A stretch of 64,000 nt of DNA from PVC group bacterium (GCA_024231215.1 JAAEQR010000072.1:257210-321209), one strand, 5' to 3'; numbered from the stretch's first letter, positions 7,817-58,243 are shown. Translations and numbers: made by a program. Notes: generated by a model not told the origin, from the sequence alone.

Positions 7817-7847
7817 TGTGGGGATTGAAAAATTCAGGAGGTGTTTA

Positions 7848-9539
7848 ATGGGTATGTGGGGGAATGAAAGTTTGCGGCAAGGGGGCATGCTTGTGAATGC
7901 AAAGGAGATACTCAAGAATAGTATTGTATTCACATGTATTTTATTATTGATATCCGGTGTTTATTTGAATACCTGTAATGCAGAGTCTTTTTTAAAGACT
8001 AGAGTTGAGAAGATTGATGCTCCTAAGTTAAATGAGATTGATCGTATTAAGCAGGTCTTGCGGCATTTGGATATCCCGAGGGATGTTGGTTTTGTAAAAG
8101 AGATTCATACGCCTACTAATCCAAGTGAAAAACTGGTAATTAATATTCAGGATTTACATTGTCATTATCAAGCTCAAAAAAATATTGCAGCGTTGATTGA
8201 TCATCTTACAGATACATTCGGCTTGAAACTTGTTGGGGTAGAAGGTGGTTCTGGAAAGATAGATACTACATTCTATAAAGAATTACCCGATGAAAAAGTA
8301 AAAGAACAAGTAGCTGATTATTTCCTGCGTGAGGCGCGGATTAACGGAACAGAATACTTTGCTATAAATACTAAAAAAGATATTGCTCTTTATGGGGTGG
8401 AAGATCCGAAATATTACGATAAAAACTTAGATGCTTTTTTAACGGCTTTACCAAAAAGAGAAAAAATCATGGACGATATTGCGGTCTTGGAAAATGATCT
8501 GAATATATTAAAAGATCGTATTTATAATAAACGTTTAAAAGAACTAGATGATACTGTTGTGGCTTATGAAAACGGTAGTTTGCCGTTTGAAGATTATGTG
8601 GTATATGTTGCCGAGCAGTATGAAGATGGTAAATTAAAGCGTGATTTTAGAGAGTTGGCAAAGTTGGTTGATAGCATTCGAATAAAGCGTAATCTGAATC
8701 TGGAAAAAGTCGGGAAACAGCGGGAAAAACTTGTTAAGTTTCTAACTAAGAAATTACCGCGGTTGGAAATGGAAGATTTTTTAAAGATAACCATGGAGTT
8801 TAAGGCAAAAACAATAAAAGGGATGAAGTATCATAATAAAGTTAAAGAACTTTACGATAACCTTGATGCAAAAACAAAGACACTTGACCGGGCCTGGCCT
8901 GAACTTAGTAAGTATATAGTATATTTAAATAAATATGAAACTTTGGATAACTTTGCGATGTTTACAGAGTTGGATAAGGCTGTGGACAGGGTAAAAAGGA
9001 ATGCTTATACCAGCTATACTCAGAAAAAATTAGATCATAACTTAAAGACAATTCGTTTGGCGCGTAATTTATTTGCTACTAAGTTACTAAATCGAGATAT
9101 ACCGTCGATAAAAAAATATCGCAGTGATTTTAATTCTAAAAAGATGGCGAAGTTTATTGCATCTCAGGCGAAAAGATTAAAACTGGATCTACCGTTGCCG
9201 ACGGATATGGAGGAGATGGAAAAGACACTTCCTATAGTAGAAGATTTTTATTATTATGCTTCAAAACGCGATAATATTTTGGCTGAGAATACCTTGAATA
9301 GTATGAAAGCAGAAAATGAATGTATTGGTATTTTGGTTGCTGGTGGTTTTCATAGTGATGGGGTAGGTGAATATTTTAAAGATAAAAAAATAAGCTATAT
9401 AGTGTTAGCGCCTTATGTTGATGAATTAGAAGAGGATGATACGCGCTATATTAATGCTTTACAGGGCAAAAAGACTCCGTTTGAAGAGCAGTTAGAGAGA
9501 GAAGAACAATTAGCAAAAAATGAAGAAGAACAAGAATAA
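7848..9539 (+). CDS. Secreted/membrane-anchored protein, QDAHC/GGFH paralogue family (third copy)
   Basis: CAGGAGG at 7835-7841 with ATG at 7848 (track start 7818 lacks an RBS). Motifs VINIQDLHCHYQAQKNI, VGVEGGSGKIDT and VAGGFHSDGV..SYIVLAPYV mirror the 3945 gene; hydrophobic N-terminal segment IVFTCILLLISGVYL. Confidence 0.75.
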   Translation: MGMWGNESLRQGGMLVNAKEILKNSIVFTCILLLISGVYLNTCNAESFLKTRVEKIDAPKLNEIDRIKQVLRHLDIPRDVGFVKEIHTPTNPSEKLVINIQDLHCHYQAQKNIAALIDHLTDTFGLKLVGVEGGSGKIDTTFYKELPDEKVKEQVADYFLREARINGTEYFAINTKKDIALYGVEDPKYYDKNLDAFLTALPKREKIMDDIAVLENDLNILKDRIYNKRLKELDDTVVAYENGSLPFEDYVVYVAEQYEDGKLKRDFRELAKLVDSIRIKRNLNLEKVGKQREKLVKFLTKKLPRLEMEDFLKITMEFKAKTIKGMKYHNKVKELYDNLDAKTKTLDRAWPELSKYIVYLNKYETLDNFAMFTELDKAVDRVKRNAYTSYTQKKLDHNLKTIRLARNLFATKLLNRDIPSIKKYRSDFNSKKMAKFIASQAKRLKLDLPLPTDMEEMEKTLPIVEDFYYYASKRDNILAENTLNSMKAENECIGILVAGGFHSDGVGEYFKDKKISYIVLAPYVDELEEDDTRYINALQGKKTPFEEQLEREEQLAKNEEEQE

Positions 9540-9638
9540 TCTATTGTTTTCGCCTTGTGGCGATATTAGGGGCGATGGATGTAAAATATTGTAGGGGCAG
9601 AAGATTTTCTGCCCGAGATTAGGTAGGAGGAATTTTCC

Positions 9639-12575
9639 ATGTTTCACAGAAAAGAAAATCGTAGTTTTTCAAAATTAATTGCATTTATTCTCATTCAGGC
9701 GTTTGTATTGGTAAACGCGCCGATAATTTATGCCGGAGGGTTATTTGACCGTAGTGCGCAAGATATCGCTTGTTTATCTCCCCAGATGCATTTAGGTGCT
9801 TCTGCATTACAGCAGGCGTTTACGGTAGAACCGGAAATTGGGCCGAGTAATGACAAAACTATCAATCTCGATGTTCTGAATCAATTGCTTGATTCCGTAG
9901 AGCTGGATGAAAACTTATTGGCTATGGAAACGTATTTAAGAAAATTTCTATCACATGATGATATCAAAACTGATACCAAGAGTTGTATTGAAATGCTCAA
10001 AAAAAGAGGTTTATTATCTCCAGTTAGCGAAACAACAGTTGAGAATTTAGCAAGAGCTATGAAGCGGGGGATTACAAGGCAGGCAGATTTGTTTCGGGAT
10101 GATATTGTAGATAAGTCTAAATCTTATGTGCGAGCAGAGCAAACAACGCTTCGTACCAGGCTTGCGACTTTAAATTATCTTAATAACAACGCAAAAGACG
10201 CAGAACTTAATTTAATCAATGCGTATAGATGGACCCAAGGTGATAATACAATTCTAAACAATATTTATAATGTATTACAAAAAGCAGCGTTGGTTAGTAT
10301 CGAAGTAGGAGCTTTATGGGAAAAGATGTTATTAGAAGACGACGGAGACAAAGCAGATGCATTCCAGCAAATAACAGAGATTATTACTTCGCAGGAAGTG
10401 GCAAAAGCTAATCAGCTATTAATAAAGGAAATAGATACAGATTGTGAAAACAATAGGGTGGATAATGCCAGAACTAAATTGACTCAACTATTAACTAAAC
10501 AAGAGCTTTCTTTGTATGGTAAGAAAACATTAGTAGAAATCATAAGTGATAAACTTTCTTTGTCGGAAGAACAACATACTCAGGTTGTTGAAATGTCTGA
10601 AGATGAAATATCCGATGCAGATATAGTAGAGTCGATAATTATTAACCGACTTTCTAATAAGCTAAATAATCTGAACAAGTCACTAGAAATTAATTTAAAA
10701 GGAAGAATGTTTGATGCGGCTTTGGCTGATATGAAAAGCATTGAAGATATAGGTGTTTTAGGTTTTGAGGAAATGAGTGAATTTAGAGATGCACAGGTAT
10801 TAATGGATTCTGTTCTGTTCAAAGAAGCAAAATTTTGGGCAGACACAAGTCTGATTAGTTTTAGTCAGGGGGATAAATCGGAAGCTAATACATCACTAAA
10901 GAATATGCTTGAGATATACGCGCATGAAGCAACTGTATTAGAGACGCGGGGTGCAATATTTAACGAGTTAAAATATAAGAAGATGGTTACTGATGATGAC
11001 AGTGAATTTTTTACGGACTTGGAGAATGCAAATGATGCGTCATCTAGGGAAAACAGTATTAAAGTTATTGTAGCAGCGATAGAGAAGAATATTGAACCGG
11101 GAATAGAAATCTTAGCAGATAATGCGAAATCATCAGTGTATGGTGATTCTACTAGAGATGATGAATATTTGACGTCAGAACAGAAAACAGAATTACTGAG
11201 AGCAAAGACAGATTATTTGCGAGAGACGATTATAAATGCTGTATCTCGTGCATATGATAAAGCAGATGTGGCCGAAGGAAGTCTTTATATGCAACAACTG
11301 GTTGATCTTACAGCTGAGAATAAAACCGATGCAGAGTTTGTTGAGCAGACGGCAAACTTAATAATCAATACCTGGTTTGGCGGTAGTGCGAGATATAAAG
11401 GTAGAGTAATGTCTTTTTTTAATGAATCAAATACATCAGAAATAACTAAATTGATTAATGATCAGGTGATTCCAAGTAAAGCGGAAACGATAATTTCTTT
11501 AGTAAAGTGGGGTTATGATCGGGGAGATATCAAAACCGCGGAAGAATATCTGACTGAAGTATTGATGCTGAGTATTTCAGCCGGAGTTACACAGAGTTCG
11601 AGAATGCAAATTATAACTTCATTGAGAATTAATGGATTGGTGCGAGATAGTCTGAATCCTATTTTAACTAGCGATCTTGAAGCAGCGGTTAATGCAGAAG
11701 ATAAGGCTAAGAGTATTGAGAATATAGTTGCATATTTAACGGTAAATATCGGTCTGAATACAGTACGGGAAGATGTCCCTCAGATGCGGCGTTATTTGCG
11801 CAAACTCCAGACAATAGATGCGGGGAACAGCTTGCTTGTGCTACTTAATTCTTTTTTTGCAAAAGGAGTTTCAGCCGAACGCCAAAAAGAATTGGTGGAT
11901 ATGCTGGTGGCCGAAGAAGTAATTAGTGAAAATGAAAAAGATGCACGCTTAAATGAATTAACTAAAGCAATTGGAAAGTCTGAAAAGGTCTATGAGATAA
12001 GAGATATTATCCTTAAACAGGGGATACTGGTTGAAATGGCCGGCCAAATAAGTTTGGCTAACTGGCTTTATGAACAACTGGAAGCTGACAAAGCTGGCAG
12101 CTTTTTAAAATTGGTTTTGGATATTTGTGATGTAACTCCGACTTTAGGAAAAGATATATTTGCTTTGTTATCCGCGGTAGGATTAGAAAATGCAGATGAT
12201 ACACAAAGAGAGAATTTATATCAAATCCTGAGTAAAGATGATACACTTAAAAATGAAATTATTGAAACGATCAATTATAATCAACAGATTGAAAAAGCAG
12301 AGCGGTTGATGAGACTAATAAGCCTTCGCGCAGCGGATAAAAATGATATCGGTGGAAAACAAATGTTTAAAGAAATTAAACGCTTGCTTAAAATTTATTG
12401 TGATGAAGGATCGTCCGAGCGGTTAAAGAAAAATATTTTCGCATTAACATCTAGATTAAGTAATTTAAACATGAGAGCTTTGCTGGGAAGTATCTTCTCC
12501 TCAGTTTCTAAAAAAATAGAATCTGAGAAAGCTCCGACGGAACAAGTATTAAGTATAGTTGGTCAGGCGATATAA
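9639..12575 (+). CDS. Large hypothetical exported protein (978 aa) with the conserved N-terminal 'ILIQAF' hydrophobic motif
   Basis: GGTAGGAGG RBS before ATG; N-terminus MFHRKENRSFSKLIAFILIQAFVLVNAPIIYAGG (basic n-region, hydrophobic core, A-x-A-like end). The rest is helix-rich with no recognised domain. Confidence 0.75.
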   Translation: MFHRKENRSFSKLIAFILIQAFVLVNAPIIYAGGLFDRSAQDIACLSPQMHLGASALQQAFTVEPEIGPSNDKTINLDVLNQLLDSVELDENLLAMETYLRKFLSHDDIKTDTKSCIEMLKKRGLLSPVSETTVENLARAMKRGITRQADLFRDDIVDKSKSYVRAEQTTLRTRLATLNYLNNNAKDAELNLINAYRWTQGDNTILNNIYNVLQKAALVSIEVGALWEKMLLEDDGDKADAFQQITEIITSQEVAKANQLLIKEIDTDCENNRVDNARTKLTQLLTKQELSLYGKKTLVEIISDKLSLSEEQHTQVVEMSEDEISDADIVESIIINRLSNKLNNLNKSLEINLKGRMFDAALADMKSIEDIGVLGFEEMSEFRDAQVLMDSVLFKEAKFWADTSLISFSQGDKSEANTSLKNMLEIYAHEATVLETRGAIFNELKYKKMVTDDDSEFFTDLENANDASSRENSIKVIVAAIEKNIEPGIEILADNAKSSVYGDSTRDDEYLTSEQKTELLRAKTDYLRETIINAVSRAYDKADVAEGSLYMQQLVDLTAENKTDAEFVEQTANLIINTWFGGSARYKGRVMSFFNESNTSEITKLINDQVIPSKAETIISLVKWGYDRGDIKTAEEYLTEVLMLSISAGVTQSSRMQIITSLRINGLVRDSLNPILTSDLEAAVNAEDKAKSIENIVAYLTVNIGLNTVREDVPQMRRYLRKLQTIDAGNSLLVLLNSFFAKGVSAERQKELVDMLVAEEVISENEKDARLNELTKAIGKSEKVYEIRDIILKQGILVEMAGQISLANWLYEQLEADKAGSFLKLVLDICDVTPTLGKDIFALLSAVGLENADDTQRENLYQILSKDDTLKNEIIETINYNQQIEKAERLMRLISLRAADKNDIGGKQMFKEIKRLLKIYCDEGSSERLKKNIFALTSRLSNLNMRALLGSIFSSVSKKIESEKAPTEQVLSIVGQAI

Positions 12576-12688
12576 GGATAGTTTTTATTAGGGAGATTCT
12601 GAACAGTGGTAAAAAAAAAGTCAAAATTCACACAATTATTTTTATTCTTATCCAGGCATTTATCCTGCCGGGTGGGCTAGGGGCGGGT

Positions 12689-14608
12689 ATGCACAACAAG
12701 GACGCAGTGAATAGAATCTACTTGTCCCCACAATTAAATATAAATAGTGTTTTATTGCAGTCGGTATTTAACCGGATGCCGGTTGCTTCATCTCCCCGGA
12801 TAAAGGTTAACATTCCGGAACAAACCATACAAAAAAAATTCATTATTTCCGCTTCCCTTAGAAAGCGTTCTGTTTTACTTGATACTGCGTGGAAAGCTAT
12901 ACCAGCGATATATCGTTTTATTTTCGGTCCTGCATTTAAAATTATTCAGTCGCAGAAACATAAGCTTAAAGAACGTATAACCCAAGTTGTATTTAATCAT
13001 CTTTCACTCCGGAAACCATTACCTGTGTCGGCTGTGGTAAAGGATGATCTTTATGCAAGGTTGGCAGGCGCGGCAAATAATTTAATTGGCACATATGCGC
13101 CGGTATTTACTGACTCACAGGAAAAGGCAAAGCGTATAGAAAAGCAGCTAGTGGGAGGTCTTGCTTTTTTAAAGCAGATACAAATGGTTGATCAGCTGAT
13201 AGATAAGATTTGTTCTATAAAAAATAAGTCTGAATATATAAATGATTTTTTAGAGCTTTTTAGCCGGGAAGAAATACCAGCCTATACCAGAAAAGCTATT
13301 TTTGAACATATATTAAAGAAGAAGCTTTTTGTAGATGATCTGGATGAGAAATTATTCTTAGATTATGTTCAGGCGATAGAAATAGGAGACAGGAATAAAG
13401 CATATCGGCTGCATGTAAAGATTGTTGAGATGCTTGCGATGAACCTTTCTTTAAAGCATGAGGCATTGCTTATTGAGGCAATGATCGAGGCTTATAATCA
13501 GAAAGATTTGGATTCCGCAGAACAACGGCTTTCAGACTTGCTGGAAATGTATGCGGATATGAATAGGACTTCAGAATATAGAAACATATTATTTAAGAAA
13601 TTAAAAGGCAAGGTATTGATAGAAGAAAAAGATAGAGATTTATTTGATGAGCTTGTTGATATTTCAGAAAGTAATTTTCCCGTAAGCATCATAAAGAAGA
13701 ACATATTTGCTATGTTCTATCATGCATTGGCAACATATTTGAAAGAAGTGAATCCGTTCATTTATAAAATATTAAAAGCAGTTAAACTATACTTTACAGA
13801 GGAAGAAAAACCTAAAACTCCGAAGCCGGTTGTAGTTGATCCGGTGCTGACTCAAGATGTTTCCAAGGGAGTAGACAGTTGTCCGGTTTTTGCAGATGAA
13901 ATAATTGAAACTATTGATAGAGCATTGTCTAGCGATGATATTATTATTAATTTTTTACGGAAAGTATGTTTAGAAGCAGATTCATCAATAGATAGTTCAG
14001 AAAGAGAGCTATCTATTGTAAAACAATTCTTAAACGATACGATGTTTAATAACCCCCATATAGATAAAGAAAACATAATTATTGGATATGAGATGGAAAC
14101 AAGGGATGATATGTTTTTGCTGATGCGGGATATTATGCTTCGATATCGTGCAAATAGCGAACAAGGACTTCCTTTTGATTTTGAACTTTTGGCGGCACGA
14201 GTATTAAAAGAAGATGCACAGTTGTATTCATTTAAACTTATGGAGCCAATACGGAACTTTCATGGACTTGCGATAAGCAGGGTAGAAATTTGCGGGCCTA
14301 AGGATAAAAAGGAAAGAGGGAGTAAGGGTCGGTTGGCTTACATAGAGGTACCCTACAAAAGTTCTGGGGAGCGTGAATTTAATAGATTATATAAAGCTGC
14401 GCGTGATAATCAATATGATTATGGAAAATTTGCAGTTGGTGAAACAGTTTGCGAAAATGGCATAAAAATGTTTGAGATTATTATCAAGGGAGATGGCAAA
14501 TCGTCCGATTTTGGCATAAGATTTTCTATTAAGGATGAAACTTTCGGATTATATCCGAAAAATGATCATAATTTTGATCCCATGGAACTGGTTTTACAGG
14601 CAATATGA
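12689..14608 (+). CDS. Hypothetical protein. The in-frame region 12527-12688 upstream of the first ATG encodes the family N-terminal motif, so the true start is probably GTG 12606, reached only via a frameshift at the A9 tract 12611-12619
   Basis: The frame of ATG 12689 is open back to a TGA at 12524-12526 and translates ...KKKVKIHTIIFILIQAFILPGGLGAGM-HNK, which matches the KLIAFILIQAFVLVN motif of the 9639 gene. There is no ATG/GTG/TTG in that stretch. GTG 12606, 10 nt after AGGGAG at 12590-12595, lies in the other frame and would join with one extra A or a -1 slip at A_AAA_AAG. Confidence 0.6.
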   Translation: MHNKDAVNRIYLSPQLNINSVLLQSVFNRMPVASSPRIKVNIPEQTIQKKFIISASLRKRSVLLDTAWKAIPAIYRFIFGPAFKIIQSQKHKLKERITQVVFNHLSLRKPLPVSAVVKDDLYARLAGAANNLIGTYAPVFTDSQEKAKRIEKQLVGGLAFLKQIQMVDQLIDKICSIKNKSEYINDFLELFSREEIPAYTRKAIFEHILKKKLFVDDLDEKLFLDYVQAIEIGDRNKAYRLHVKIVEMLAMNLSLKHEALLIEAMIEAYNQKDLDSAEQRLSDLLEMYADMNRTSEYRNILFKKLKGKVLIEEKDRDLFDELVDISESNFPVSIIKKNIFAMFYHALATYLKEVNPFIYKILKAVKLYFTEEEKPKTPKPVVVDPVLTQDVSKGVDSCPVFADEIIETIDRALSSDDIIINFLRKVCLEADSSIDSSERELSIVKQFLNDTMFNNPHIDKENIIIGYEMETRDDMFLLMRDIMLRYRANSEQGLPFDFELLAARVLKEDAQLYSFKLMEPIRNFHGLAISRVEICGPKDKKERGSKGRLAYIEVPYKSSGEREFNRLYKAARDNQYDYGKFAVGETVCENGIKMFEIIIKGDGKSSDFGIRFSIKDETFGLYPKNDHNFDPMELVLQAI

Positions 14609-14647
14609 TCTGGATGAAATGAAAAGTTAAAAAAAGGATAAAATAAG

Positions 14648-14676
14648 TTGCAAAAACACGGTTTATAAGATATACT
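14648..14676 (+). promoter_or_regulatory. sigma70-like promoter: TTGCAA - 17 nt - TATACT
   Basis: ttgcaa at 14648-14653 and tatact at 14671-14676, upstream of the PilZ gene. Confidence 0.5.
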
Positions 14677-14712
14677 TTAACGGTTTGTGTGAGATGCTTT
14701 AGAGAGGAAATT

Positions 14713-15099
14713 ATGGGACAAGAAAGAAGAAAATACATACGTTTAAAAGTACACAGTTCAGTGGCTAATTGCCGTTTGTTGTCAATACGTCAAAGGGACC
14801 CGTGTAGTACCTTTACGGTCTGGCCGGTAAAAGACCTTGGAATTGGAGGGCTATCGGTTCATACTGAAGATGAAGTTCCTTTGGATACCTTAGCATATCT
14901 GAATATGGATCTGGATATCGCTATGCGTACCGTAGGAGTTCTTGCCAAGGTGATCTGGCGTAAGGCAAAAGATGTAGGCTATGAGCTGGGGCTGCAATTT
15001 TGCGGCTGGCCCAAAGAAGATGACCGGGATGCCATGGCTGATTATATTGAGCATCAGATCAGTAGTGAATCTGATTCTGAAGCTATAATTTTAGGATAA
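14713..15099 (+). CDS. PilZ-domain protein (putative c-di-GMP receptor), ~128 aa
   Basis: MGQERRKYIRLKVHS has the RxxxR motif (RKYIR); DLGIGGLSV is a D-x-S/G-x-x-G variant of the second PilZ signature. Probable start ATG 14713 (purine-rich GAGGAAA upstream) rather than track start 14689. Confidence 0.7.
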   Translation: MGQERRKYIRLKVHSSVANCRLLSIRQRDPCSTFTVWPVKDLGIGGLSVHTEDEVPLDTLAYLNMDLDIAMRTVGVLAKVIWRKAKDVGYELGLQFCGWPKEDDRDAMADYIEHQISSESDSEAIILG

Positions 15100-15120
15100 A
15101 TTAATAAGGAGACAATTTTG

Positions 15121-18100
15121 ATGAAGTTTCTAGGTTTAAAACATAGGATGTTAAAACCCAAAATTTGCAATAGAACGTGGCGAAGAACACTAATCTTTTG
15201 GGCTCAAAAAAGCTACAAAAAGCTTCGACAAACAATAAAGTGTGCCTGCGTTTTTTGTAACTTTTTGATCTCCAAAATATCAGCACTCTTTATCCCCGAC
15301 TATCGCAAAATCTGGGTTAAAATAATTGCAATGACACTTGTTCAGACATTTCTGATTGTGAATATCTGTGGACCAGTACATGCCCAAATTAATAATAAGG
15401 AACAGACTAATTCTGATTATCTGGCGCCGCAGGTGATTTTGAATCATGATACCATCCGAAATGCTTTTATTGATATTGTAGAAAATGGTAATATATTCGA
15501 TGGTCTTTTTGAAAGTGAAAATCAATTTAGCGAGGGGGCAGGGAATGATGGGAAGGTACATCATCAATCAACTAATATTTTTAATAATTTTTCAAGTCCG
15601 GTTTCTATCCCAAGTGATTTCGCTAACGGAAAAATAATCAGACTGGATAGCCCCACAGCACCACCGCCACCCGAGAATTTCAAACAAGTTTTTCCAACAG
15701 GTTTTAATGAATTTAAATTTGGTTTGTGGGGAAGATTAAGTTGGAACAAAGAAGATTTAGTTCAACACATGAAGAAATATGGAATAATTGTAGATTCTGA
15801 GGATTTTGATAAAGAACAATTGCGTAGGGTATATAACACGTTTGTTGTAGCGGTTGAAAAAGATAAAGATTTTACAAATGCATGGTTTATGTTGGGAGAA
15901 ATTCATATTTCCAGAGAAGATATGTATTTTCAGGCAGGAGAAGAGAAACCACACAAGCTTCTTTTCCCGCATGTTACAGAATATGAGACAAAAATAATTT
16001 TCTATAATTCTTTCTTTTATATTAATAGAATGACAAGAATTCATTTATTTGATGGAAGAAGCGTAAATGACCGCAAGAAGAATTTAATAGACACCGTTAA
16101 AATGGCTCATGATCTTAGTGTGTATTATGAGGGGAGGGGATTGCCGGTTAAAACTACTGATTTAGAGAGTGCTCAGGCGCAGGATATGTTTGAAAAATTA
16201 GATATAGTTGGAACTGAGTCCACAATAAAATTCATTCTTGATTCGATGAAAGATGAACCGTATGATGATATCAAAATAGCAGTTCCGGAATTAATATCGA
16301 TACAAGCTTTTAAAAACGCATTGAGGATATCGAGAATTAGTTATGAAGAGCTGGGTAGAGAACAAATGATAGAGCTGCTTACAAAGATAAATGAATTGGC
16401 ACAGGAAGATATGCTTAATAAGAGTCGGGTTGACGATGAGCTTTTAAATAGAGCAATATCTGAGTGTTCTAATGTTTCTCTTAGTGCTGGAAAAAAGAAA
16501 ATGCTTATTAAGAGTCTAAATAGTGCAATTGATACCTGGAAAAATGAAAAAAAGTATTGGGGAGTTAGAGAGCACTTTAGTGGCGGGCGTCAAATTCGGA
16601 CATTTCTTTTGTATCCATTTGGCATCCAGGAGTTAGACAGACTTCGAAATGAATCGAATGGATATAAAAATCCTCGTGTTTGGAAAATCCGAGAAGATGA
16701 AGATTCTATGGCTATGTATGAATTGTTATGGAGATATTCGCCTAAAAACCATGAGATAGAGGAGGGGCATTTACAGCAGGTTTTTGCGGCTGATCCAGAT
16801 AATCCTGTTCTAGATATTCCTTTAAAGGATGGATCACCTGATGATATACTTCGTTCAATAGTTGAGATTGCGGTGACTGATTGGAAACAAAAGGCGGCAG
16901 GTCTTTCGGGTGGATTTGTGTCTGCTATGAAGGGAATAACCAATACATTGGGACAGAATGGTTATAATGCGTATTTGCCTGGGCCGAAGACAGAAGGGTT
17001 GCTTAAAGAAGTGCATGCAAATGTTCCTATTTTTAGGCATGGTGGGTATATGGCAGTTGCATTAGATATATGGTTTTTTTATGTTTTTAGTGCCAGAGAA
17101 AACTTAAATGTTAATAAATTGAATCATATTGTAGAACATATTTGTAGGACAAGATATACATTTTTGAATGAAAGAGGAAGAAATCTAGTTAGGACTCATA
17201 TTCAGGAAATTGATAATAAACATCGCAAAGAAAGAAAACTTCGAACTCGCAATTTGAAGTTAAAAGAGGAAGATGATCATTGGGTAAATAATGGGAGTGG
17301 TACATTATTCCCTAAATTATTAAATGTAATGATGGGTATTCCTTTTTTTGCTGTAGAAACTATGATTCCGACAACATTAAAGGCTTCAACTATAGTTCAG
17401 CAAAGTCAGGGAGGTGCTGGTGGAGCGAACTTGGGTGCTTATCTGGTGGGAGGGATAGCTGTTGGATTTTCTGTTTGGATATATAATAAATTTTTTAGTC
17501 AAAAAGCAATTCGGAAAGAAATCGAGAGACTTTCTTTGGAAGCAATGGAGAAAAATGATGTTTCTAAATTAAGAAGATATTATGACAAATCTAATTATAA
17601 ACGTAAGCAGATGATTATTAATACGGTTGGAATAGCCGGAGAAGAAGCAACTAATGAGGCCTTTCTTCAACAACTTATAGCGAGTGAAGGTGACGATGCA
17701 TATGCTAAAGCTGTTGTGGATGGAGTCTATGAATTTTTGTTGCTTAGAACTAGCGATGTATTGTCGGGTACTATATATGAAATATCTGATTTATCATTGC
17801 AGGATTCTGTTTTACTAGAGTTCTTAGTAGAAGATGATATGGATAAAAAATATGATATAGTTATTGAAGATGAATTTGCTGTGGCAGATGAATTGGTCGA
17901 AGTTTTTGGGGAGTTGCAGCAAGAGCAAGCTGATTATGCACTGGGTAACAATGAATTTCATAAAGGAGAATTTTATAGGATGGTCAATGAGAATCCTGTG
18001 CTGAAAGAATCCTTGATTGACGCTGGTAGAAAAAAAGGTGAAGTTCTTCAGCGGTTTGCTATAAATAACTGGATTGCGGTACAAGCTAGAAAAAACAAAG

Positions 18101-18312
18101 AGGATGCTTCAATAGTAGTTGAAAAGTTACTTTCACCGGAAGCAAGAAGAAAAGTGGAAGAAATAGGGGATAATTCTAGTGATCCTGATTTTAGAGCTGA
18201 AGCTGAATTAGCGCTTATGCTGGATGAAAAATTAACAGTTGGAACATCAAGAAGCAGTGTAGATTCGAGAGAAAAAGACTCATTGATTGCAGTTATTGAG
18301 GCTGCAATTTAG
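15121..18312 (+). CDS. Large hypothetical membrane-anchored protein (1,063 aa). Basic Cys-containing N-terminal extension, then the conserved 'LVQTFLIVN' hydrophobic motif, then a later Gly-rich TM segment
   Basis: AAGGAG 9 nt upstream of ATG 15121. Motif RKIWVKIIAMTLVQTFLIVNICGPVHAQ at residues ~62-90; internal hydrophobic GAGGANLGAYLVGGIAVGFSVWIY at nt ~17400-17480. No catalytic motifs recognised. Confidence 0.7.
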   Translation: MKFLGLKHRMLKPKICNRTWRRTLIFWAQKSYKKLRQTIKCACVFCNFLISKISALFIPDYRKIWVKIIAMTLVQTFLIVNICGPVHAQINNKEQTNSDYLAPQVILNHDTIRNAFIDIVENGNIFDGLFESENQFSEGAGNDGKVHHQSTNIFNNFSSPVSIPSDFANGKIIRLDSPTAPPPPENFKQVFPTGFNEFKFGLWGRLSWNKEDLVQHMKKYGIIVDSEDFDKEQLRRVYNTFVVAVEKDKDFTNAWFMLGEIHISREDMYFQAGEEKPHKLLFPHVTEYETKIIFYNSFFYINRMTRIHLFDGRSVNDRKKNLIDTVKMAHDLSVYYEGRGLPVKTTDLESAQAQDMFEKLDIVGTESTIKFILDSMKDEPYDDIKIAVPELISIQAFKNALRISRISYEELGREQMIELLTKINELAQEDMLNKSRVDDELLNRAISECSNVSLSAGKKKMLIKSLNSAIDTWKNEKKYWGVREHFSGGRQIRTFLLYPFGIQELDRLRNESNGYKNPRVWKIREDEDSMAMYELLWRYSPKNHEIEEGHLQQVFAADPDNPVLDIPLKDGSPDDILRSIVEIAVTDWKQKAAGLSGGFVSAMKGITNTLGQNGYNAYLPGPKTEGLLKEVHANVPIFRHGGYMAVALDIWFFYVFSARENLNVNKLNHIVEHICRTRYTFLNERGRNLVRTHIQEIDNKHRKERKLRTRNLKLKEEDDHWVNNGSGTLFPKLLNVMMGIPFFAVETMIPTTLKASTIVQQSQGGAGGANLGAYLVGGIAVGFSVWIYNKFFSQKAIRKEIERLSLEAMEKNDVSKLRRYYDKSNYKRKQMIINTVGIAGEEATNEAFLQQLIASEGDDAYAKAVVDGVYEFLLLRTSDVLSGTIYEISDLSLQDSVLLEFLVEDDMDKKYDIVIEDEFAVADELVEVFGELQQEQADYALGNNEFHKGEFYRMVNENPVLKESLIDAGRKKGEVLQRFAINNWIAVQARKNKEDASIVVEKLLSPEARRKVEEIGDNSSDPDFRAEAELALMLDEKLTVGTSRSSVDSREKDSLIAVIEAAI

Positions 18313-18352
18313 CTTATGGGGCTGAAAAAAATAAAATAAATAGCATATTTGT

Positions 18353-18386
18353 CCGCTGGGGGGAAGAATATCCCGGCGGATTTTTA
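18353..18386 (+). terminator. Rho-independent terminator of the 15121 gene
   Basis: ccgctggg / cccggcgg, an 8-bp stem with one G.U pair and loop gggaagaata, followed by attttt. Confidence 0.65.
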
Positions 18387-18523
18387 ATTATCGGGCGATT
18401 CGTGAATCGCCCCTACAAGTCGAAAATAAATAAACATAATTGGGAGGGCAATTTTAAAAGAGTCAATGCTTACAACATCTTTATTTTCAATAGCTTGCAA
18501 CTTCTAAAAAAAGCGAAAAATCT

Positions 18524-18552
18524 TTGACAGGGCCTACTTTTTATGATATACT
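18524..18552 (+). promoter_or_regulatory. Near-consensus sigma70 promoter for the giant gene: TTGACA - 17 nt - (TGa)TATACT
   Basis: ttgaca at 18524-18529 and tatact at 18547-18552 with TG two nt upstream (extended -10-like). Predicted TSS ~18559, giving a ~190-nt leader to ATG 18749. Confidence 0.6.
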
Positions 18553-18660
18553 ATAAATGTCTTAAAAAAGAGGGTAAAATATTTATAACTGATTGAAAAT
18601 AAATGTTGTTAGAAAAACAATTCGACAGTTCCGAAAGGACTGCTTTAAGGTTGGGTGGGT

Positions 18661-18704
18661 GGGCTGAAGATAGAAATTATCTTCAGCATGCCCTTTTTTG
18701 TTTT
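18661..18704 (+). terminator. Intrinsic terminator/attenuator inside the 5' leader of the giant gene
   Basis: gctgaagata (18663-18672) / tatcttcagc (18678-18687), a perfect 10-bp stem with loop gaaat, then atgccc + tttttt g tttt. It lies between the promoter (18524-18552) and the start codon (18749). Confidence 0.6.
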
Positions 18705-18748
18705 CAGATACTGTTACAAAACGCACATCTACAAAATAAGGTGAAGAG

Positions 18749-21700
18749 ATGGTGACTCGAATATTTCATAGTATAGTCTACTGCGGGCACAAATTATTGC
18801 ACATCTGCAGCGTTGTGCTTCTTCAGCTTTCTCGTCGTACCGCAAAGGGTACGCCTCCGGAAGCTTCAGTCGCACGCCTTGCATCTGCACAACACTTTGT
18901 GTCCTCGCGACGACAATACCATGAAATACCCGAGTTGCGCGCAAATCGAAAATACAAATTGTGGTTTCGAATCGTATCCGCGATACTTGTCCAGGCCTTT
19001 TTGGTTATGGATATCGCTATGGCTTCGGGCGGAGATTTGAGCTGGTTAAAAACACCTAAAAATCTATCCCGTAGTGAAAGTAAAATTTCCCATCTTTCTC
19101 CCACCACAAAAATCGATAAAGGAGTTTTCCGAAACAGCGTTGAATTATGGAGCGCTCTTGCTATAGCAATGAATAGTCCTGATAATGAAGAGCTGCGCAA
19201 GCCTTATGGGATTAGTGTTGTTGATGCCCACAATAGAATAATGTCTATAACGATGGAGAAGGAAGTATTATTTATTTATCGTCTTGATGATGCGCCAATC
19301 GCTTTTAAATTAAACCCCGTTCTTGAAACTACAACTAATAAGATGAGATTGGGTGAATTTGAACTTGCGACAGTACCGATTGAAGAAGTAGTTGAAGTAG
19401 GCGGTGATTTACTTGGATATGAAAGAATTATTACTTCGCAGGAGTTTGCAGAACGCTTAGATGCTTTAAACAGCGCGCCAGAGTTTAATGAAGAAGAGGC
19501 TTTGGAGCTGGTCAGACAAATGATATTAGCGGCTGGGATTACCGGAGAGATTAAAACTATAGGTAGGGATCAATATGCGAAATGGAAGCCGGAGAAATGG
19601 GATGTGCAAAAAGAAGCGACCAAGCTGATGTATAAAGGTTGTGTAGTTAATATGCCGACTTCGGCTGGAAAGACGATTGTATTTAATGCTACAGGGATTT
19701 TACGTAATCTTGCTAATAGATTACAAAAAGATAAGAAACGCGAAGTAACGATTGTGCATACTGAAGAAAATTTGGTAGAAAGAGATGCTATGCAGGCAAG
19801 CAAAGTAAATCAAAAGTTTAAAATGACTACCGGATATGTAATTTCTCAGGATGGAGAACGTAAGGCGTATATTGATAAAAATGGAGAGATGGAGGAGACT
19901 ACAGAGCAAGATTTGTATAAGAATGCAGATATTGTTTATATTCATGTTTACAATTTTGTGCATAGATTTCAAGCTGATTGTTATACCGCTAAAAAGACAG
20001 AAGATATCGCTTTGCTTTGGGGCCAACAGACTTATTTTATGGCTTTTGATGAAGGTGATGTTCCTTTAAAACATCATATGTCTACGCCGAGTGTTCTTTC
20101 CGGTGGTAATGATTTGATAGAGGGAATTAGGAAGATGCGATTGCATTTTGCGAAAAAGACAATGCAGATACAGGAGATTGTTGATGAACTTATTCAGGGT
20201 GATTTGTTAGATCCTGTTACTGGTAAGGCATCTAATAATTATTGTGAAGTACATAAGGATTCAAAGACGGTTAATCTGACCCCGAACGGTAAGGATTGGC
20301 TAAGAGCTAAACTCGAAGGAGTGAAAGAATATACTGAAAATAGGAATACAGAGATGGGAGATTTTGATCTATGGTTAGACTTTACAGAGTTGGCTTTATC
20401 TGCATATCGTTGTTATAAGATGGGTGTAGATTATAAGATAAAGGCTGATGCAAATGGCAATAATCAGATTGTAATTATTGATAAAGATACTGGTATGGAG
20501 TTGCCCGGACGGCGCTGGAGTCATGGTGTGGATATTGCCGTGCGTTTAAAAGAAAACCGTCAGGGAACTGAAAAACTTGAAATCAAACCGGATCAGATGA
20601 TTATTGCTTCAATGATGTTGCCGGAAATTCTTAGCTCTCAATTGGGGCTAGTTTCCGGGATTAGTGCAGCTTCTGCTACAATTGGTGAAGATACGGCCCA
20701 GATGTATGATATCAAATGGAAAAATCTTAGTGATCGTACAGAAGAATCAAAAAGAGAAGAGCGAATTGTAGTAAGTTCTGATCAAAAAACATCAGAACAG
20801 CATGCACTGGATATGATTGAGGTTTTAAAAGCTGGTAGTAAGGTAAAAGACTATATGCAGAAATGGGGCATGCCGGATAAAGATAAAACAGGTGCTGTAA
20901 TTATACGTTGTGATTCGGAACCTGAAGGAGCGAAGTTCACAGATGAGCTTATTCAGAAGACTACTTTAGGGCAAAGGAATATACTCAGAATAAAACGAGA
21001 TGGTACAATCGTAGATGCTAATGGTGAGCAGATAAAAGGGGCGAGTTTGCAGAATTTGGATAGTTTAATTGCAAATGATAGTATAGATAATATCTTAATT
21101 GATTTCAGCTCGGGTAATCAGAATATGTTTACTGATTTGACGGGAGAGAAAAAACTGAAAGATAAAATTGCGACGCTTTCTAAAGATAAGCGGGTTATTA
21201 TTGTCTCCACAAACTTAGTTGGTCGTGGGGTGGACTTTAAAGGTGATAACATGGTGTGTATTTCTTTGAGCTGTGATATTGCCGAAGAAAGTGAAATTCA
21301 GCTTAAAGGACGAGTTGCTCGTGACGGCAGAAAGGGGTACTTTTTTGGTTTTTGGTCGATTCAGGATGAAGTTTTTGTGAAATACAAAAAACTTATTCCT
21401 GACTCCCGGATGCATTTTTCGACAAAAGTAAAAGATGGTAAAACGCATATTTTTACCCTGACTAATGATCCTAAGAAATCAGTAGAAAGTGAAAGGCATA
21501 TTGTAGGAATGAGAGATGTTATTAATGATCATATCCAGCAAATGCGTCGTGAACAGAAAAAATTCGGAGAATCTTTATGGGATCCGGGCGATGATTCTGG
21601 ACATAAAAAGGGTTTTGCCAAAGAATTTGTGGAAAATAGATATCGTGTGCTTGTTCGCGGGCTACAGGGGGTGGGGATCCCTGAATTGGATGATATCTTA

Positions 21701-48700: not shown

Positions 48701-50941
48701 CTTAATGATTATATTATGCAAACAATTAATGAATTGGGTGGGGAAGCTATTTGGAATCGAGAGTATGATGTAAACGAAGGACGTTTTTATATCATTATGC
48801 CATTAGCTATGCTTACTGTATTTAGCGGGTGGCTTATGATTTTGTTTGACTTGACTCCGTTTGTGGGAATTAATGCTATTTTTTGGAGTATTGGAATACT
48901 TGCAAATCAGATACTTACTTTTCATGGACTTTTAGCTTATTTAAGAAAAACAGGATACGTTGCGCTAAGTGCAGCAGTGTTTGGAATTATCGGGATGGGG
49001 CTAGGATTTATGTCCGGTGGCATGCTGGGAGCAGTAATTTGGGGAATTGTTGGTCAGTTGTACGGAGGTTTTATTGTTGGTTTTAATGCTTGGATGTCTA
49101 AACGTATTCGAGATGCGGTTCTTTTTGCTTCGCGGGTGAACATTGAGACTTTTGCCCAGATAAAAGGACATATAGGAATTAATTTCGAATTTAAGCTTTC
49201 GGGTAAAGGTGGGGATAGTCCAGCTGTCCCGTGGATTGGTTTGTCGATATTCTATAATCAAAAAGCCAAAAAATTACAATTTATATCCATATGGAATCAA
49301 GATGAAAATAAAAAGGAAATAGATATAACTAGTTTGAATTTTATAGTATTTGTTGGTGCAGTTATTTCTGTGATTACTTTTTTAGTTATTCCGAAGCTTT
49401 CATTGTTAAACGTGATAATGACAATCCTTGGATTGATTTTTATTATGGGTATACCTATGGGACCGTTTTTAATGAAGCGAAAAATTGGAGAACATAGTCC
49501 CATAGGTGAGTTTATTGGAAAGAATATAGTGGGTTTTGGTGGCGGAGCTTTATTTCTTACGGCAATTTCTCTACTGGGACGGCATGGGGTGATGAGTGGA
49601 TTTGACATGTTGGTTTCCGGGGCGGGATGGCTATTGATGATTGCGGTGAATGTAATTCCAATAATACGAATAATTACTCAGTGGCAGTTTAGGGATGTTC
49701 CGGAAGGATCCATAAGTATTAATACATTTAGAGATCCTGAAACTGTAAAGAAGCTACACAAGAAGAAGGTCGATGAAATTGCTCGTAAAAAAGCTAAGAA
49801 AAATGCTAAGTTTAAGGTCAAAGAAATTACTCATAGACAAGCTAAGAAAAAGGCTAGGTTTTTGGAATGGCTATATCTTAGCAGGGATGCTAGAGTTACT
49901 TCTGAAACAGCGCGTGGTTTCTGGTGGGCGATGATTACTTTAAGTTGGTTTATACTTGTTCCTAGAGATGCTGTGATTACTGCGTCTTTTGGTAAATATA
50001 TGTCAGCTTTTCCCATTGCATTAGTAGTTAGTATTGTTACAAAGGGAATAATATATATAATTATAAGTGTATGGTTAGGTAAATTTGTTGAGGTTATCCA
50101 GACTCGTTGGTGGATTGCGAAATCTAATGCTTTGCGTCGGACAATACTGCCGTTAATTGAACAAGCTGTAAATTCAGGTCGTTACACGTATACTTTGAAT
50201 GAAATATTGACGCGTTTTCCTGCTATAGATAAAGGGATAAGTAATCGATCCTTCCGTCAGGTCAAAACGGCATATAGAGACATTCATAGGATGTTGAACG
50301 AATATGATAATCGTAATATACTTGATAATTCAGAGATAATTAAAATAAATGCTCTCGAGTTTTATAAAGTAGATACTAAGACAATTGTTGCGTCTCCTAA
50401 GGTGATGTCTGCATTAATTGGGATTACAGCGTTAATGGGATTAACTTATATAAATTATCAATTTGGATTTGAGGGAGTGGTTATCGGCATTCAGGCTTTT
50501 TCTAGAACGTTAAATACATTCGTGGCTCAACTGCCTTTCCAAGAGGGATTTGTTGCGCAGAATATCCATTGGCTTATAACTGCAGGGAGCGCGCTGTTAG
50601 GTCTTATCATTATAAGGTTAAGGAGAAGGTTCTTAAAGGCTGTCAGGGGTAGAAGCAAAGAGGATCTATTGGGAGGGGTGATGCCATATTTAATAAAGGG
50701 AAGGAACAAAGCTCCTAAAAAATCTTCACCTAAAAATGCTATAGTATCAATTCTTGAGGCATTTTCATCTGCTGCTCGGAAGAGGCAGGCAATAGTTAAG
50801 CCAACAGTTACTTCTTCAGATGAAAAATGGATAGAAGGAGAAGAATCAAAGGAACGTGGTTCTCCTCTTTCGGGGTTAATTAAATTAGATGATAGAGAAG
50901 AAGCAGTTCAGGAAAGTTTGTTGATTGAGGCTGCGATTTAA
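18749..50941 (+). CDS. Giant multidomain protein (10,730 aa): N-terminal extension + hydrophobic '[10 protein letters not shown]' motif, SecA-like ATPase module, ~10-helix membrane domain, ~1,700-aa coiled-coil-like tract, long beta-rich body containing a degenerate clan GH-A glycosidase-like domain, and C-terminal polytopic membrane bundles
   Basis: A single frame is open for 32,193 nt in AT-rich DNA, where stops should occur every ~20 codons, so this reflects selection. Domain calls come from motifs read in the translation (see sub-features). The start is uncertain: ATG 18749 has a weak SD, and in-frame TTG 18935 gives [22 protein letters not shown].., which fits the family N-terminus. Confidence 0.85.
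   Translation: [10730 protein letters not shown]
19430..21700 (+). other. SecA-like module within the giant protein (NBD1, PPXD-like insert, NBD2, start of helical scaffold)
   Basis: Blocks matching E. coli SecA from memory: WDVQ..[8 protein letters not shown] vs FDVQ..MRTGEGKT (Walker A, nt 19652-19675); NLVERDAM vs [26 protein letters not shown] vs [41 protein letters not shown] vs [21 protein letters not shown] (nt ~20042); VNLTPNG vs [42 protein letters not shown] vs [49 protein letters not shown] vs ATNMAGRGTDI (nt ~21206); [26 protein letters not shown] vs [28 protein letters not shown]. Confidence 0.8.
22200..23470 (+). other. Polytopic membrane domain (~10 predicted TM helices) immediately after the SecA-like module
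   Basis: Successive ~20-aa hydrophobic stretches: [216 protein letters not shown]. Confidence 0.6.
24150..29450 (+). other. K/E/Q/L-rich, heptad-like alpha-helical (coiled-coil-prone) tract of ~1,700 aa with short interruptions
   Basis: Composition and periodicity of the translation (e.g. [14 protein letters not shown].., [33 protein letters not shown].., [35 protein letters not shown]..); recurring LDPNNT/VDPNNT motifs around nt 28100-28560. Confidence 0.5.
41360..42030 (+). other. Degenerate clan GH-A (TIM-barrel glycosidase)-like domain inside the giant protein, paralogous to the downstream GH genes but lacking the nucleophile motif
   Basis: Aligns block-by-block with ORF 54692 and ORF 59001: MRGVTFFS vs [19 protein letters not shown] vs MGANVFRIYHH / [20 protein letters not shown] vs [21 protein letters not shown] vs VLMWVFGNENNY (acid/base Glu retained as DE); [14 protein letters not shown] vs [23 protein letters not shown] vs [18 protein letters not shown] replaces KPVLVTEYG (nucleophile TEYG lost). 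Confidence 0.55.
46300..50650 (+). other. C-terminal region of the giant protein with multiple TM-helix bundles separated by soluble segments and a highly basic K-rich linker (~49740-49870)
   Basis: Hydrophobic runs: [267 protein letters not shown]. Basic linker [38 protein letters not shown]. Confidence 0.55.
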
Positions 50942-50978
50942 TAAATATTTTCAGGAAAGGCAAAGAAAGGCAAAGCTC

Positions 50979-51335
50979 ATGGATAATATTCAAAATAAAA
51001 GGCAATGTAAGAGAGGGCAGGTTCAAGATACTTCTGTTAGTCTGAGATCTCTAGACCCTTTGGTATGGTTTAAATTCTGGGGAGGTTCTGAGTGTTGTGT
51101 GCGCGATATAAGCCTTTTAGGGGTGGGATTGTGTTGTGATGAAAGGCTTCCGGTTGGGACCAGATTAAGCATTGATTTGAGGTTAGGTCGAAGGGAAAGC
51201 AATATTCGTATTTTTGGTCGCGTTGCTTGGACGGAAAAAACAAGAGATAATTACCGGGCGGGAGTGAGATTTTCTTGGTGGAAAGATGACCAGGATAAGA
51301 AAATACTAGACGATTTTGTAGAAAAATTGAATTGA
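50979..51335 (+). CDS. PilZ-domain protein (putative c-di-GMP receptor), ~118 aa, immediately downstream of the giant gene
   Basis: MDNIQNKRQCKRGQV contains RxxxR (RQCKR); VRDISLLGVGL is D-x-S-x-x-G. The track start 50925 overlaps the giant gene stop; ATG 50979 is the first start after the TAA at 50939-50941. Confidence 0.7.
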   Translation: MDNIQNKRQCKRGQVQDTSVSLRSLDPLVWFKFWGGSECCVRDISLLGVGLCCDERLPVGTRLSIDLRLGRRESNIRIFGRVAWTEKTRDNYRAGVRFSWWKDDQDKKILDDFVEKLN

Positions 51336-57313: not shown

Positions 57314-57343
57314 GTGCTTATTAGAGAAAGGAGGAGCAAGGTG

Positions 57344-58183: not shown

Positions 58184-58215
58184 ATTACTTAGCTTTACGT
58201 TGTTCGCTAAGTAAT
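58184..58215 (+). promoter_or_regulatory. Conserved 5'-UTR stem-loop upstream of CBM-like paralogue C
   Basis: attacttagc / gctaagtaat, a perfect 10-bp stem with 12-nt loop tttacgttgttc, ~15 nt upstream of the AAGGAGG RBS. Preceded by a second hairpin tgccaa..ttggca (58151-58168). Same stem/loop geometry as 57284-57313 with covarying sequence. Confidence 0.5.
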
Positions 58216-58243
58216 GCGTTTATTAAAGAAAGGAGGCAAAGGA

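Follow-up and report, generated by a model that had tools for sequence, protein, structure and literature searches.

Four consecutive large proteins encoded in a 64,000-nucleotide stretch of DNA from a PVC group bacterium (GCA_024231215.1, JAAEQR010000072.1:257210-321209; the whole 64-kb stretch is referred to here as the window) begin with a common two-part N-terminal module of ~60 residues. The module consists of a basic stretch, a hydrophobic helix, a linker and a second conserved element, the LSP box; it is carried by the genes G1 to G4, the last of which encodes a giant of 10,730 residues. It is conserved in relatives, heads tandem gene arrays, co-occurs with a conserved gene termed D, with PilZ genes and with giant genes, and is fused to domains of cytoplasmic type. 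We conclude that a hydrophobic motif noted earlier in these proteins belongs to a longer N-terminal address tag of ~60 residues, of which it is the visible part, and that this lineage-specific tag marks a large multigene family of Candidatus Omnitrophota, giants included. With a probability of roughly one half, this tag acts as a dedicated membrane-targeting and docking signal that is retained, so that the bulk of each protein would stay in the cytoplasm.

Few bacterial gene products are as poorly understood as the giants of Omnitrophota, which reach ~147,000 residues, and both their membrane side and their route are unsettled in published work. A short, portable and defined tag, common to giants and to dozens of normal-sized, enzyme-bearing neighbours, makes the question of sidedness experimentally approachable. 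In addition, the tag serves as a marker for true gene starts, two of four having been misplaced here by public annotation, and it flags the strongly conserved gene D as a candidate component of the system.

The N-terminal module in the window

The window is a single co-directional run of large open reading frames (ORFs) with ~37% G+C. A preliminary description had reported a hydrophobic motif containing Q-[AT]-F near the start of four proteins, and all four instances were found in place, the first being SKLIAFILIQAFVLVNAPIIYAGG at 9639 in G1. When the pattern [ILVMT][ILVM][ILVM]Q[ATS]F[ILVM][ILVM] was run over six frames of the 64 kb, it gave exactly four matches, all at the N-termini of G1 to G4. 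Pairwise BLASTP among the window's own proteins (E 1e-4 to 0.5) confined the similarity of the four to their N-terminal ~55 residues, apart from weak extra matches between G1 and G2. The second conserved box, which is absent from the preliminary description, reads [YCH]-L-[SA]-P-x-h-x-h...F and is located 25-32 residues past the Q-[AT]-F core.

The position of the module relative to the naive ORFs differs among the copies listed in Table 1. In G2, the motif spans 12608-12688, which is 5' of ATG 12689 and within a stop-free stretch without ATG, GTG or TTG, while the module of G3 corresponds to residues 63-117 of an ORF opening at 15118 and that of the giant to residues 63-131 of an ORF opening at 18749. 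A fifth, degenerate copy (G5) is not reported by the family hidden Markov model (HMM) at E<0.1; it is placed after a PilZ gene, as are module genes in the related loci L002, L006 and L015.

Table 1. Positions of the module copies and of associated features in the window.
Feature	Position	Strand	Gene or product	Sequence or context	Match
Module copy 1 (G1)	9639..9827	+	gene 9639-12575, 978 aa	MFHRKENRSFSKLIAFILIQAFVLVNAPIIYAGG...CLSPQMHLGASALQQAF	family HMM E=4.5e-17
Module copy 2 (G2)	12606..12769	+	gene end 14608	module encoded 12608-12769	family HMM E=7.9e-14
Module copy 3 (G3)	15304..15468	+	gene end 18312	RKIWVKIIAMTLVQTFLIVNICGPVHAQ...YLAPQVILNHDTIRNAF	family HMM E=6.9e-19
Module copy 4 (giant, G4)	18935..19141	+	ORF end 50941	LRANRKYKLWFRIVSAILVQAFLVMDIAMASGG...HLSPTTKIDKGVFRNSV	family HMM E=1.3e-18
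Degenerate copy 5 (G5)	51573..51815	+	ORF 51573-53045, 490 aa	ordinary hydrophobic N-terminus and LSP-type box FLAPVLQMQKDEFRINF	
Gene D	7818..9539	+	573 aa	ordinary signal-like N-terminus; directly 5' of first module gene	
PilZ gene 1	14689..15099	+	136 aa	between G2 and G3	Pfam PF07238 E=1.5e-7
PilZ gene 2	50925..51335	+	136 aa	directly after giant	Pfam PF07238 E=7.9e-10
Long imperfect hairpin, giant leader	18752..18938	+	~190 nt	ATG 18749 just 5' of base; TTG 18935 in 3' base	
SecA-like ATPase of giant	19580..21328	+	aa 278-860 of long ORF	NBD1, preprotein-binding domain, Helicase_C	

A family delimited by the tag

A 67-position profile built from the four window copies only was searched with HMMER against 1.84e9 representative proteins (E<=1e-3). 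The search found 102 proteins with lengths from 55 to 6,383 residues, of which 101 match at residues ~1-90; the one exception, a repeat protein, is a false positive. Among 99 family members, the start of the core falls at residue 2-43, and in 93 of them at 8-21. The family signal is far beyond chance. The profile run, which follows a check suggested in the preliminary description, yields an N-terminal family of 101 proteins. The earlier view of the motif as a family-specific, signal-like N-terminal element (basic stretch, hydrophobic core with invariant Q-[AT]-F, small-residue end) is borne out, and the element is kept in relatives and orthologues.

The family logo displays a K/R-rich N-terminus and the consensus core F-[KR]-I-I-[AS]-x-x-L-I-Q-A-F-L-x-x-[DN]-x-A-W-A-G-G, followed by x-G-[D/E]-L. 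Within the helix part, K/R is present eight residues before the Gln in 96%, the Gln itself in 88% (otherwise K, N or H), the Phe in 97% and D/N in 90%, and this h-region is the best-conserved part of the module. A linker of 14.3±2.7 residues leads to the LSP box, [S/T]-[T/C/Y]-L-[S/A]-P-x-h-x-[I/L]-[N/D]-x3-h...[Q/K/R]-x-x-[F/Y], in which L is conserved in 100%, S/A in 97% and P in 97%. Since the DIAWAGG and the K/R eight residues before the Gln, both prominent in the consensus, are barely present in the query, the matches represent a real family and not an echo of the query.

The named sources of family members are Candidatus Omnitrophota. One member is located on another contig of the window's own metagenome-assembled genome ('PVC group bacterium', locus tag GY853), and one cluster labelled Paceibacterota, on contigs of 1-2 kb, is probably mis-binned. 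Word-index searches with full-length G1, with the first 1000 residues of the giant and with the four-copy alignment returned G1 itself or no match, and a scan of a genome collection with a tightened alignment returned a single locus. No model in Pfam or NCBIfam covers the module, and it is not described in the Omnitrophota giant-gene papers or in the texts reached by a full-text motif search. The tag delimits a large multigene family that had not been recognised before.

The family HMM was also used to scan 15 related loci, in which the module heads an ORF in every case. The module genes are arranged in co-directional tandem arrays, with six in L008, five each in L002 and L009, four each in L005, L012 and the window, and three each in L007 and L014, and the bodies of the array proteins are mutually unrelated.

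Domains attached to the tag

The domains identified by Pfam in tagged proteins include SAM (S-adenosylmethionine) methyltransferases, GGDEF, AAA+, GT1/GT4, PGM/PMM, PGK, NDK, glutamate dehydrogenase and UDPGP, together with NUDIX, cNMP-binding, HATPase_c, ROK, CofD, PPDK and ATP-grasp domains; among the families displayed by the scans, no typical secreted domain was found behind the tag. Catalytic motifs are preserved, as an intact RRGGDEF occurs 25 residues after the LSP box with no hydrophobic segment in between, and the PGM serine loop is intact in a tagged protein. The protein P0039 (= P0109), a 1,527-residue fragment from an ENA metagenome, carries the tag at residues 6-65, a full SecY at 382-704 (E=3.6e-36) and SecA_DEAD/PP_bind at 1006-1524; a SecY-SecA fusion was not found mentioned in the Omnitrophota giant-gene papers. 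SecY has a fixed topology and is preceded in P0039 by a two-helix hairpin, which implies that the stretch after the tag is cytoplasmic.

Membrane helices were called throughout by simple hydropathy scans, and in ~44% of members these revealed a second hydrophobic segment within 200 residues, the N-flank being the more K/R-rich side in 34 versus 12. The positive N-flank of this second segment, with Tat-like RRxF in some members, likewise implies a cytoplasmic stretch after the tag. A parity count of membrane helices before GGDEF and Walker-A domains was too noisy and was not used. In P0038, P0100, P0101, P0054 and a P0008-like group, a second signal-like element is located at residues ~75-125, 70-100 residues past the tag, and is either Tat-like (T/S-R-R-x-F-F/I-K and a hydrophobic run) or Sec-like (K/R-N, a hydrophobic run and P-F-A-S-P-A-L-S-A-A).

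The preliminary description had likened the motif to a signal that marks the cargo of a single export system. Both the n-h-c layout and the small residues at -3/-1 do fit Sec, but cytoplasm-type enzymes, including a SecA-like ATPase, are fused to the tag, and simple export is therefore not established.

Comparison with known signal classes

Judged by its residues alone, the module looks like a textbook Sec signal, with n-h-c layout, an AxA-type end and a charge bias of the N-in/C-out kind. The 15 residues before the helix contain a mean of 3.8 K/R versus 0.27 D/E (n=138), in keeping with a Sec n-region, and the C-flank of the helix contains 1.1 K/R versus 2.0 D/E. The h-region, for which Sec signals use 7-15 residues, is represented by 13 apolar positions that separate the K/R from the D/N, with the near-invariant Gln in mid-helix, and the c-region has A/S/C/T in 84% at -3 and A/C/S in 90% at -1 of A-W-A. 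In the window, the c-regions are VHA in G3 and AMA in G4; G1 and G2 fit more poorly. Sec type I cargo acts outside the cytoplasm, whereas the domains attached here are nucleotide- or cofactor-dependent domains of cytoplasmic type and are accompanied by the SecA-like ATPase and SecY.

In its working the tag is closest to specialised signal or sorting sequences, but it lacks the defining motif of each class compared. KxYKxGKxW gave no NCBIfam or Pfam match on the N-termini and does not appear in the family logo; the Tat motif S/T-R-R-x-F-L-K is not in the module logo, RRxF being confined to second, downstream segments of few members. A lipobox, [LVI][ASTVI][GAS]C, is not formed, as Cys reaches only ~9% and the -1 residue is Trp where Cys follows A-W. 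The class III prepilin motif G↓F/M-T-L-x-E after a short basic leader is in no copy. A double-glycine leader does not fit either, with Gly at 43-47% at the two positions after A-W-A and a fully hydrophobic helix, and Pfam gave no match to a C39 domain in the window. No class of cleaved signal is known to have its strongest conservation in the h-region. The tag is set apart from the named classes by a peak of conservation inside the hydrophobic core and by its attachment to cytoplasm-type enzymes.

Accessory Sec systems (SecA2/SecY2), such as those of the serine-rich glycoproteins GspB and Fap1, combine a specialised signal peptide bearing hydrophobicity-lowering core residues with an AST domain, a dedicated SecA paralogue and very large cargo. 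The tag resembles them in its family-specific signal, conserved hydrophobicity-lowering core residues, conserved early segment, large cargo and clustered genes, and possibly in a dedicated SecA paralogue. Unlike them, it has, by the NCBIfam and Pfam scans, neither KxYKxGKxW nor an Asp1-3/glycosyltransferase set, its cargo consists of cytoplasm-type enzymes and not of serine-rich repeats, its SecA-like unit is a domain in a tagged protein, and it occurs in Omnitrophota rather than in Firmicutes and Actinobacteria. The Sec-related context comprises the SecA-like domain inside the giant and the SecY-SecA fusion in P0039; separate SecA2, SecY2 or Asp genes were not found in the window.

Other systems also have features in common with the tag. 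The extended signal peptide region (ESPR) of large autotransporters and two-partner secretion proteins is also a conserved N-terminal element on unusually large proteins, and the second signal-like hydrophobic segment that follows the tag in ~40% of members recalls the normal signal behind an ESPR; however, the ESPR is an n-region extension of ~25 residues with another motif, it has no Pfam match here, and most tagged proteins are without a second signal. Type IV pilins with a class III signal likewise have a conserved hydrophobic N-terminal helix with one polar residue (E5 in the pilin, Gln in the tag) and paralogues in arrays; the pilin helix is retained as an assembly element, and genes of type II/IV secretion have been reported in the neighbourhood of Omnitrophota giants. 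In contrast to pilins, the tag has no G↓F-T-L-I-E motif, its basic stretch is not a short leader, and its cargo is 300-10,000 residues long and not a pilin head. The C-terminal sorting signals of the LPXTG/sortase, PEP-CTERM/exosortase and GlyGly-CTERM/rhombosortase systems also combine a short motif, a hydrophobic helix and a basic cluster in large paralogous families, and co-occur with a conserved dedicated gene, as the tag does with gene D. The tag is, however, their N-terminal mirror image, and gene D has no detectable relation to sortases, Pfam families, or families known from PDB sequences or folds.

The window conforms to the published description of 'Archaeovorin'-type giant-gene loci of Omnitrophota (West-Roberts et al. 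2023, 10.1101/2023.11.21.568195; 2026 preprint, 10.64898/2026.06.07.730766), having a giant with divergent SecA_DEAD/PP_bind domains and many membrane helices, PilZ right after it, and a transporter gene of the MFS type and glycoside-hydrolase genes downstream. Text searches of 10.1101/2023.11.21.568195 and 10.64898/2026.06.07.730766 retrieved no conserved N-terminal motif, no motif on normal-sized neighbours, no SecY fusion and no gene D.

Genes that accompany the tag

Gene D is located directly 5' of the module array in five loci, namely the window, L005, L008, L011 and L014. Its motifs are IQDLHCxY, with an invariant IQD-x-H-C, GVEGGSG and GGFH, and it has paralogues at 3945-5534 and at 159-3746, the latter in the N-terminal part of that ORF. 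It is conserved far better than the tagged proteins, the L011 homologue matching at E=4.8e-223. No match was obtained in Pfam (E<=10), in a PDB profile search, or in Foldseek-PDB below E=0.07. The AlphaFold2 model, from a shallow run and of moderate confidence (predicted local distance difference test, pLDDT, 65.8), has an alpha/beta core with a helical insertion of ~300 residues. A resemblance to TraB/TIKI/GumN-type proteases was supported by none of Pfam, the PDB profile search, AlphaFold2 and Foldseek. The preliminary description suggested looking for a peptidase or sorting gene that co-occurs with the motif; gene D, 5' of the arrays, is a candidate.

PilZ genes adjoin module genes in six loci, and the second PilZ gene of the window has orthologues that are placed likewise in L002 (E=1e-53), L006 and L015. 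Both PilZ proteins of the window are small, single-domain proteins without a signal peptide. The PilZ genes, together with GGDEF domains in several tagged relatives, suggest control of the tag system by cyclic di-GMP. In L002, L006 and L015, too, the giant is followed by PilZ, a module gene, MFS and glycoside hydrolase, in this order. The glycoside-hydrolase and other secreted-type genes of the window carry ordinary, different signal peptides, on which the family HMM has no match.

Proposed role of the tag and alternatives

For a retained targeting signal, we propose that the basic stretch and the hydrophobic helix of 13-18 residues would act as a signal of the Sec/SRP (signal recognition particle) type, as their charge bias and hydrophobicity suggest, and would bring the protein to the cytoplasmic membrane with its N-terminus inside. 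A common partner may then read the unusually conserved positions. In the helix part these comprise the central Gln, the K/R eight residues upstream and the D/N six residues downstream of that Gln; A-W-A-G-G, the length-constrained 14-residue linker and the invariant L-[SA]-P box belong to them as well. All carriers would thereby be delivered to and held at the same envelope machine as the giant. The conserved gene D is one candidate partner, and the SecA-like preprotein-binding domain, joined by SecY in some giants, is another. The tag would most likely remain uncleaved as a tether, with the enzymes on the cytoplasmic side, which is the weakest step of the proposal. A retained tag with a cytoplasmic bulk requires a protein-assisted return of the chain, and the stretch after the helix might return at or through a protein partner, e.g., as a signal-plus-loop hairpin engaging the Sec channel; a channel of the Sec type is the natural candidate, because tagged giants carry SecA and SecY parts. 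The conservation of the h-region, the signal-less PilZ proteins, the intact motifs of the attached domains, the flanks of the second segments and the SecY topology of P0039 speak for this proposal.

Several observations weigh against it. The polarity of the helix is textbook N-in/C-out with an AxA-type end, and by standard rules the single-helix members, including G1 to G4, would have their bulk outside. The LSP box has a mean Kyte-Doolittle hydropathy of 0.20 and no positive cluster after it, and thus offers no conventional return across the membrane; the box as a second membrane pass was rejected on these two features. Degenerate relatives combine ordinary, cleavable-looking signals with an LSP box, which speaks for a genuine Sec signal in the helix. 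In addition, the SecA-like giants and gene D are not within 10 kb of every array, and the AlphaFold2 prediction of the module from the four window sequences is uninformative (pLDDT 50.5).

The main rival, which we regard as possible but not probable, is a cleavable, dedicated export signal of the accessory-Sec-like kind that is cut after A-W-A. The mid-helix Gln would then keep the protein off the housekeeping route, and the LSP box would serve for recognition early in the mature region, as the AST domain does in SecA2 substrates. The whole cargo, enzymes included, would be carried by the SecA/SecY-like parts of the giants to the envelope, to the surface coat or to prey. The n-h-c layout, the charge bias and the small -3/-1 residues all agree with such a signal, as does the continuum with proteins of L015, L005, L011 and L013 and with G5, in which an ordinary signal peptide is joined to an LSP box. 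Furthermore, tagged giants carry SecA-like and SecY domains, gene D has an ordinary signal peptide and would therefore meet the LSP box outside the cytoplasm, and published topology predictions place most domains of giant proteins outside (10.1101/2023.11.21.568195). Export is, however, difficult to reconcile with cargo domains that need ATP, GTP, SAM, NAD(P) or nucleotide sugars, and the SecA-like motor would itself leave the cytoplasm. The SecY topology of P0039 puts the stretch after the tag inside, signal-like or Tat-like segments retained further along the chain would be superfluous or in the wrong orientation, and neither the KxYKxGKxW motif nor Asp proteins were found in the NCBIfam and Pfam scans. 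A more doubtful idea is that a self-contained Sec-like machine within the giants themselves, with a SecA-like motor and in some of them SecY, has the tag as its cognate signal, which would act in cis as a signal-plus-loop hairpin in the giant and in trans in the array proteins. If so, the giant would hold the enzymes on a tether or pass them through itself; as a system for dedicated protein targeting this would be of a new kind, and it would account for the topology paradox long noted in giants of Omnitrophota.

It is unlikely that the module serves solely for assembly, as an intramembrane or cytoplasmic domain without targeting specificity, in which helix and box would hetero-oligomerise the array products with one another and with the giant as clients on a scaffold. 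The helix never lacks a polar residue (Q, K, N, H or E), it is the best-conserved part, and one tag is common to different enzymes in tandem arrays, all of which would suit assembly; but a 13-residue apolar run after a basic N-terminus would be taken by SRP/Sec anyway, the AxA-type end and the constrained linker would be left unexplained, and the low-confidence AlphaFold2 model lends no structural support. The notion of a chance or compositional likeness to ordinary signal peptides, or of an artefact of annotation or translation, draws on the similar composition of signal peptides and on two of the four copies lying outside or deep inside naive ORFs. It is already refuted by the restriction of the six-frame pattern to four N-termini, the significant and positionally fixed matches in 1.84e9 proteins, the constrained spacing of the linker, the synteny conserved across loci, and the failure of the family HMM to match ordinary signals in the same loci.

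Gene starts

G1 has a normal start, with a strong Shine-Dalgarno (SD) sequence, GGAGG, 8 nt 5' of ATG 9639. The only plausible start of G2 is GTG 12606, 10 nt after the SD sequence AGGGAG (12590-12595), and it is one frame off the module. Its zero frame, GTG GTA AAA AAA AAG, includes a run of nine A (A9, 12611-12619) that contains the dnaX-type slippery heptamer A_AAA_AAG, and either one extra A (A10) or a -1 slip on A_AAA_AAG restores the frame to MVKKKVKIHTIIFILIQAF.... This offset could stem from an error in the homopolymer or the assembly, reflect slippage in transcription or translation, or mark G2 as a pseudogene. Poly-A tracts as a family-wide phase-variation device were rejected, a run of at least eight A being present in G2 only.

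The start of G3 is likely TTG 15265 rather than ATG 15121, and that of the giant is likely TTG 18935. The alignment of the L014 orthologue with G3 begins at residue 63 of G3, and the frame of the orthologue is open for only eight codons ahead of its Met; similarly, relatives of the giant (P0003, P0005, P0009, P0018, P0030, P0039 and P0049) start 6-15 residues ahead of the helix. The N-terminal extensions of G3 and the giant have codon scores of -0.45 (15121-15264 in G3) and -0.23 bits/codon (giant), respectively, versus +0.17 to +0.27 for real coding starts. Against internal starts, a good SD sequence precedes the ATG of each long ORF but neither of the internal TTGs. Of the two options offered in the preliminary description, internal starts are probable, favoured by the family start positions, the orthologue alignments and the codon usage. 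The other, cytoplasmic Cys/His heads resembling Zn-knuckles, was rejected on the basis of codon usage, the RNA hairpin and orthologue starts; the head of the giant (18749-18934) is a translated, GC-rich hairpin leader that is not conserved, which in turn favours the internal starts. In the public annotation, G3 (P0002) begins at Met 15331 inside the helix and G2 (P0041) at ATG 12689 without the helix, so that the modules of both are invisible in public protein records.

The giant gene and minor features

The hairpin in the giant leader has 49.5% GC versus ~37%, and an RNA minimum free energy of -72.4 kcal/mol (z=-5.2, 0/200 shuffles). An Rfam scan of the window gave no structured RNA match, the hairpin included. 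The hairpin may control translation of the giant. Upstream, a promoter-like TTGACA-17-TATACT is present at 18524-18552, and a hairpin with a T-run follows G3 at 18663-18705.

The ATPase of the giant matches SecA_DEAD (9.4e-11) and SecA_PP_bind (4.4e-10) in Pfam and SecA (1.9e-18) in NCBIfam, its best PDB sequence matches are SecA, and the motifs MPTSAGKT, FDEGD and QLKGRVARDGRKG (Walker A, DExD and arginine finger) are intact. The region is divergent, with SecA_DEAD and the preprotein-binding domain and without scaffold or wing. By hydropathy, the ~1,060 residues after the tag, the SecA-like ATPase included, have no membrane helix. The helices are clustered at residues 1159-1770 (nine helices; ~22223-24058) and 8834-10624 (16 helices; ~45248-50620), with ~7,000 helix-free residues in between, and the first cluster is conserved with P0049. 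The nine-helix cluster was considered as a SecY homologue without support, phmmer giving no match and hhalign a probability of 0.3%. Within the helix-free middle, a weak match to a GH2-type TIM barrel is located at ~41,700-42,200.

Between the glycoside-hydrolase genes downstream of the giant, three tandem paralogues of ~220 residues (56569-57243, 57314-57991 and 58214-58879), which have no Pfam match, carry ordinary signal peptides and share ...PSGWMGD.GD.KMNE...SGKSCIKFTY...WGEK.GG.DL.

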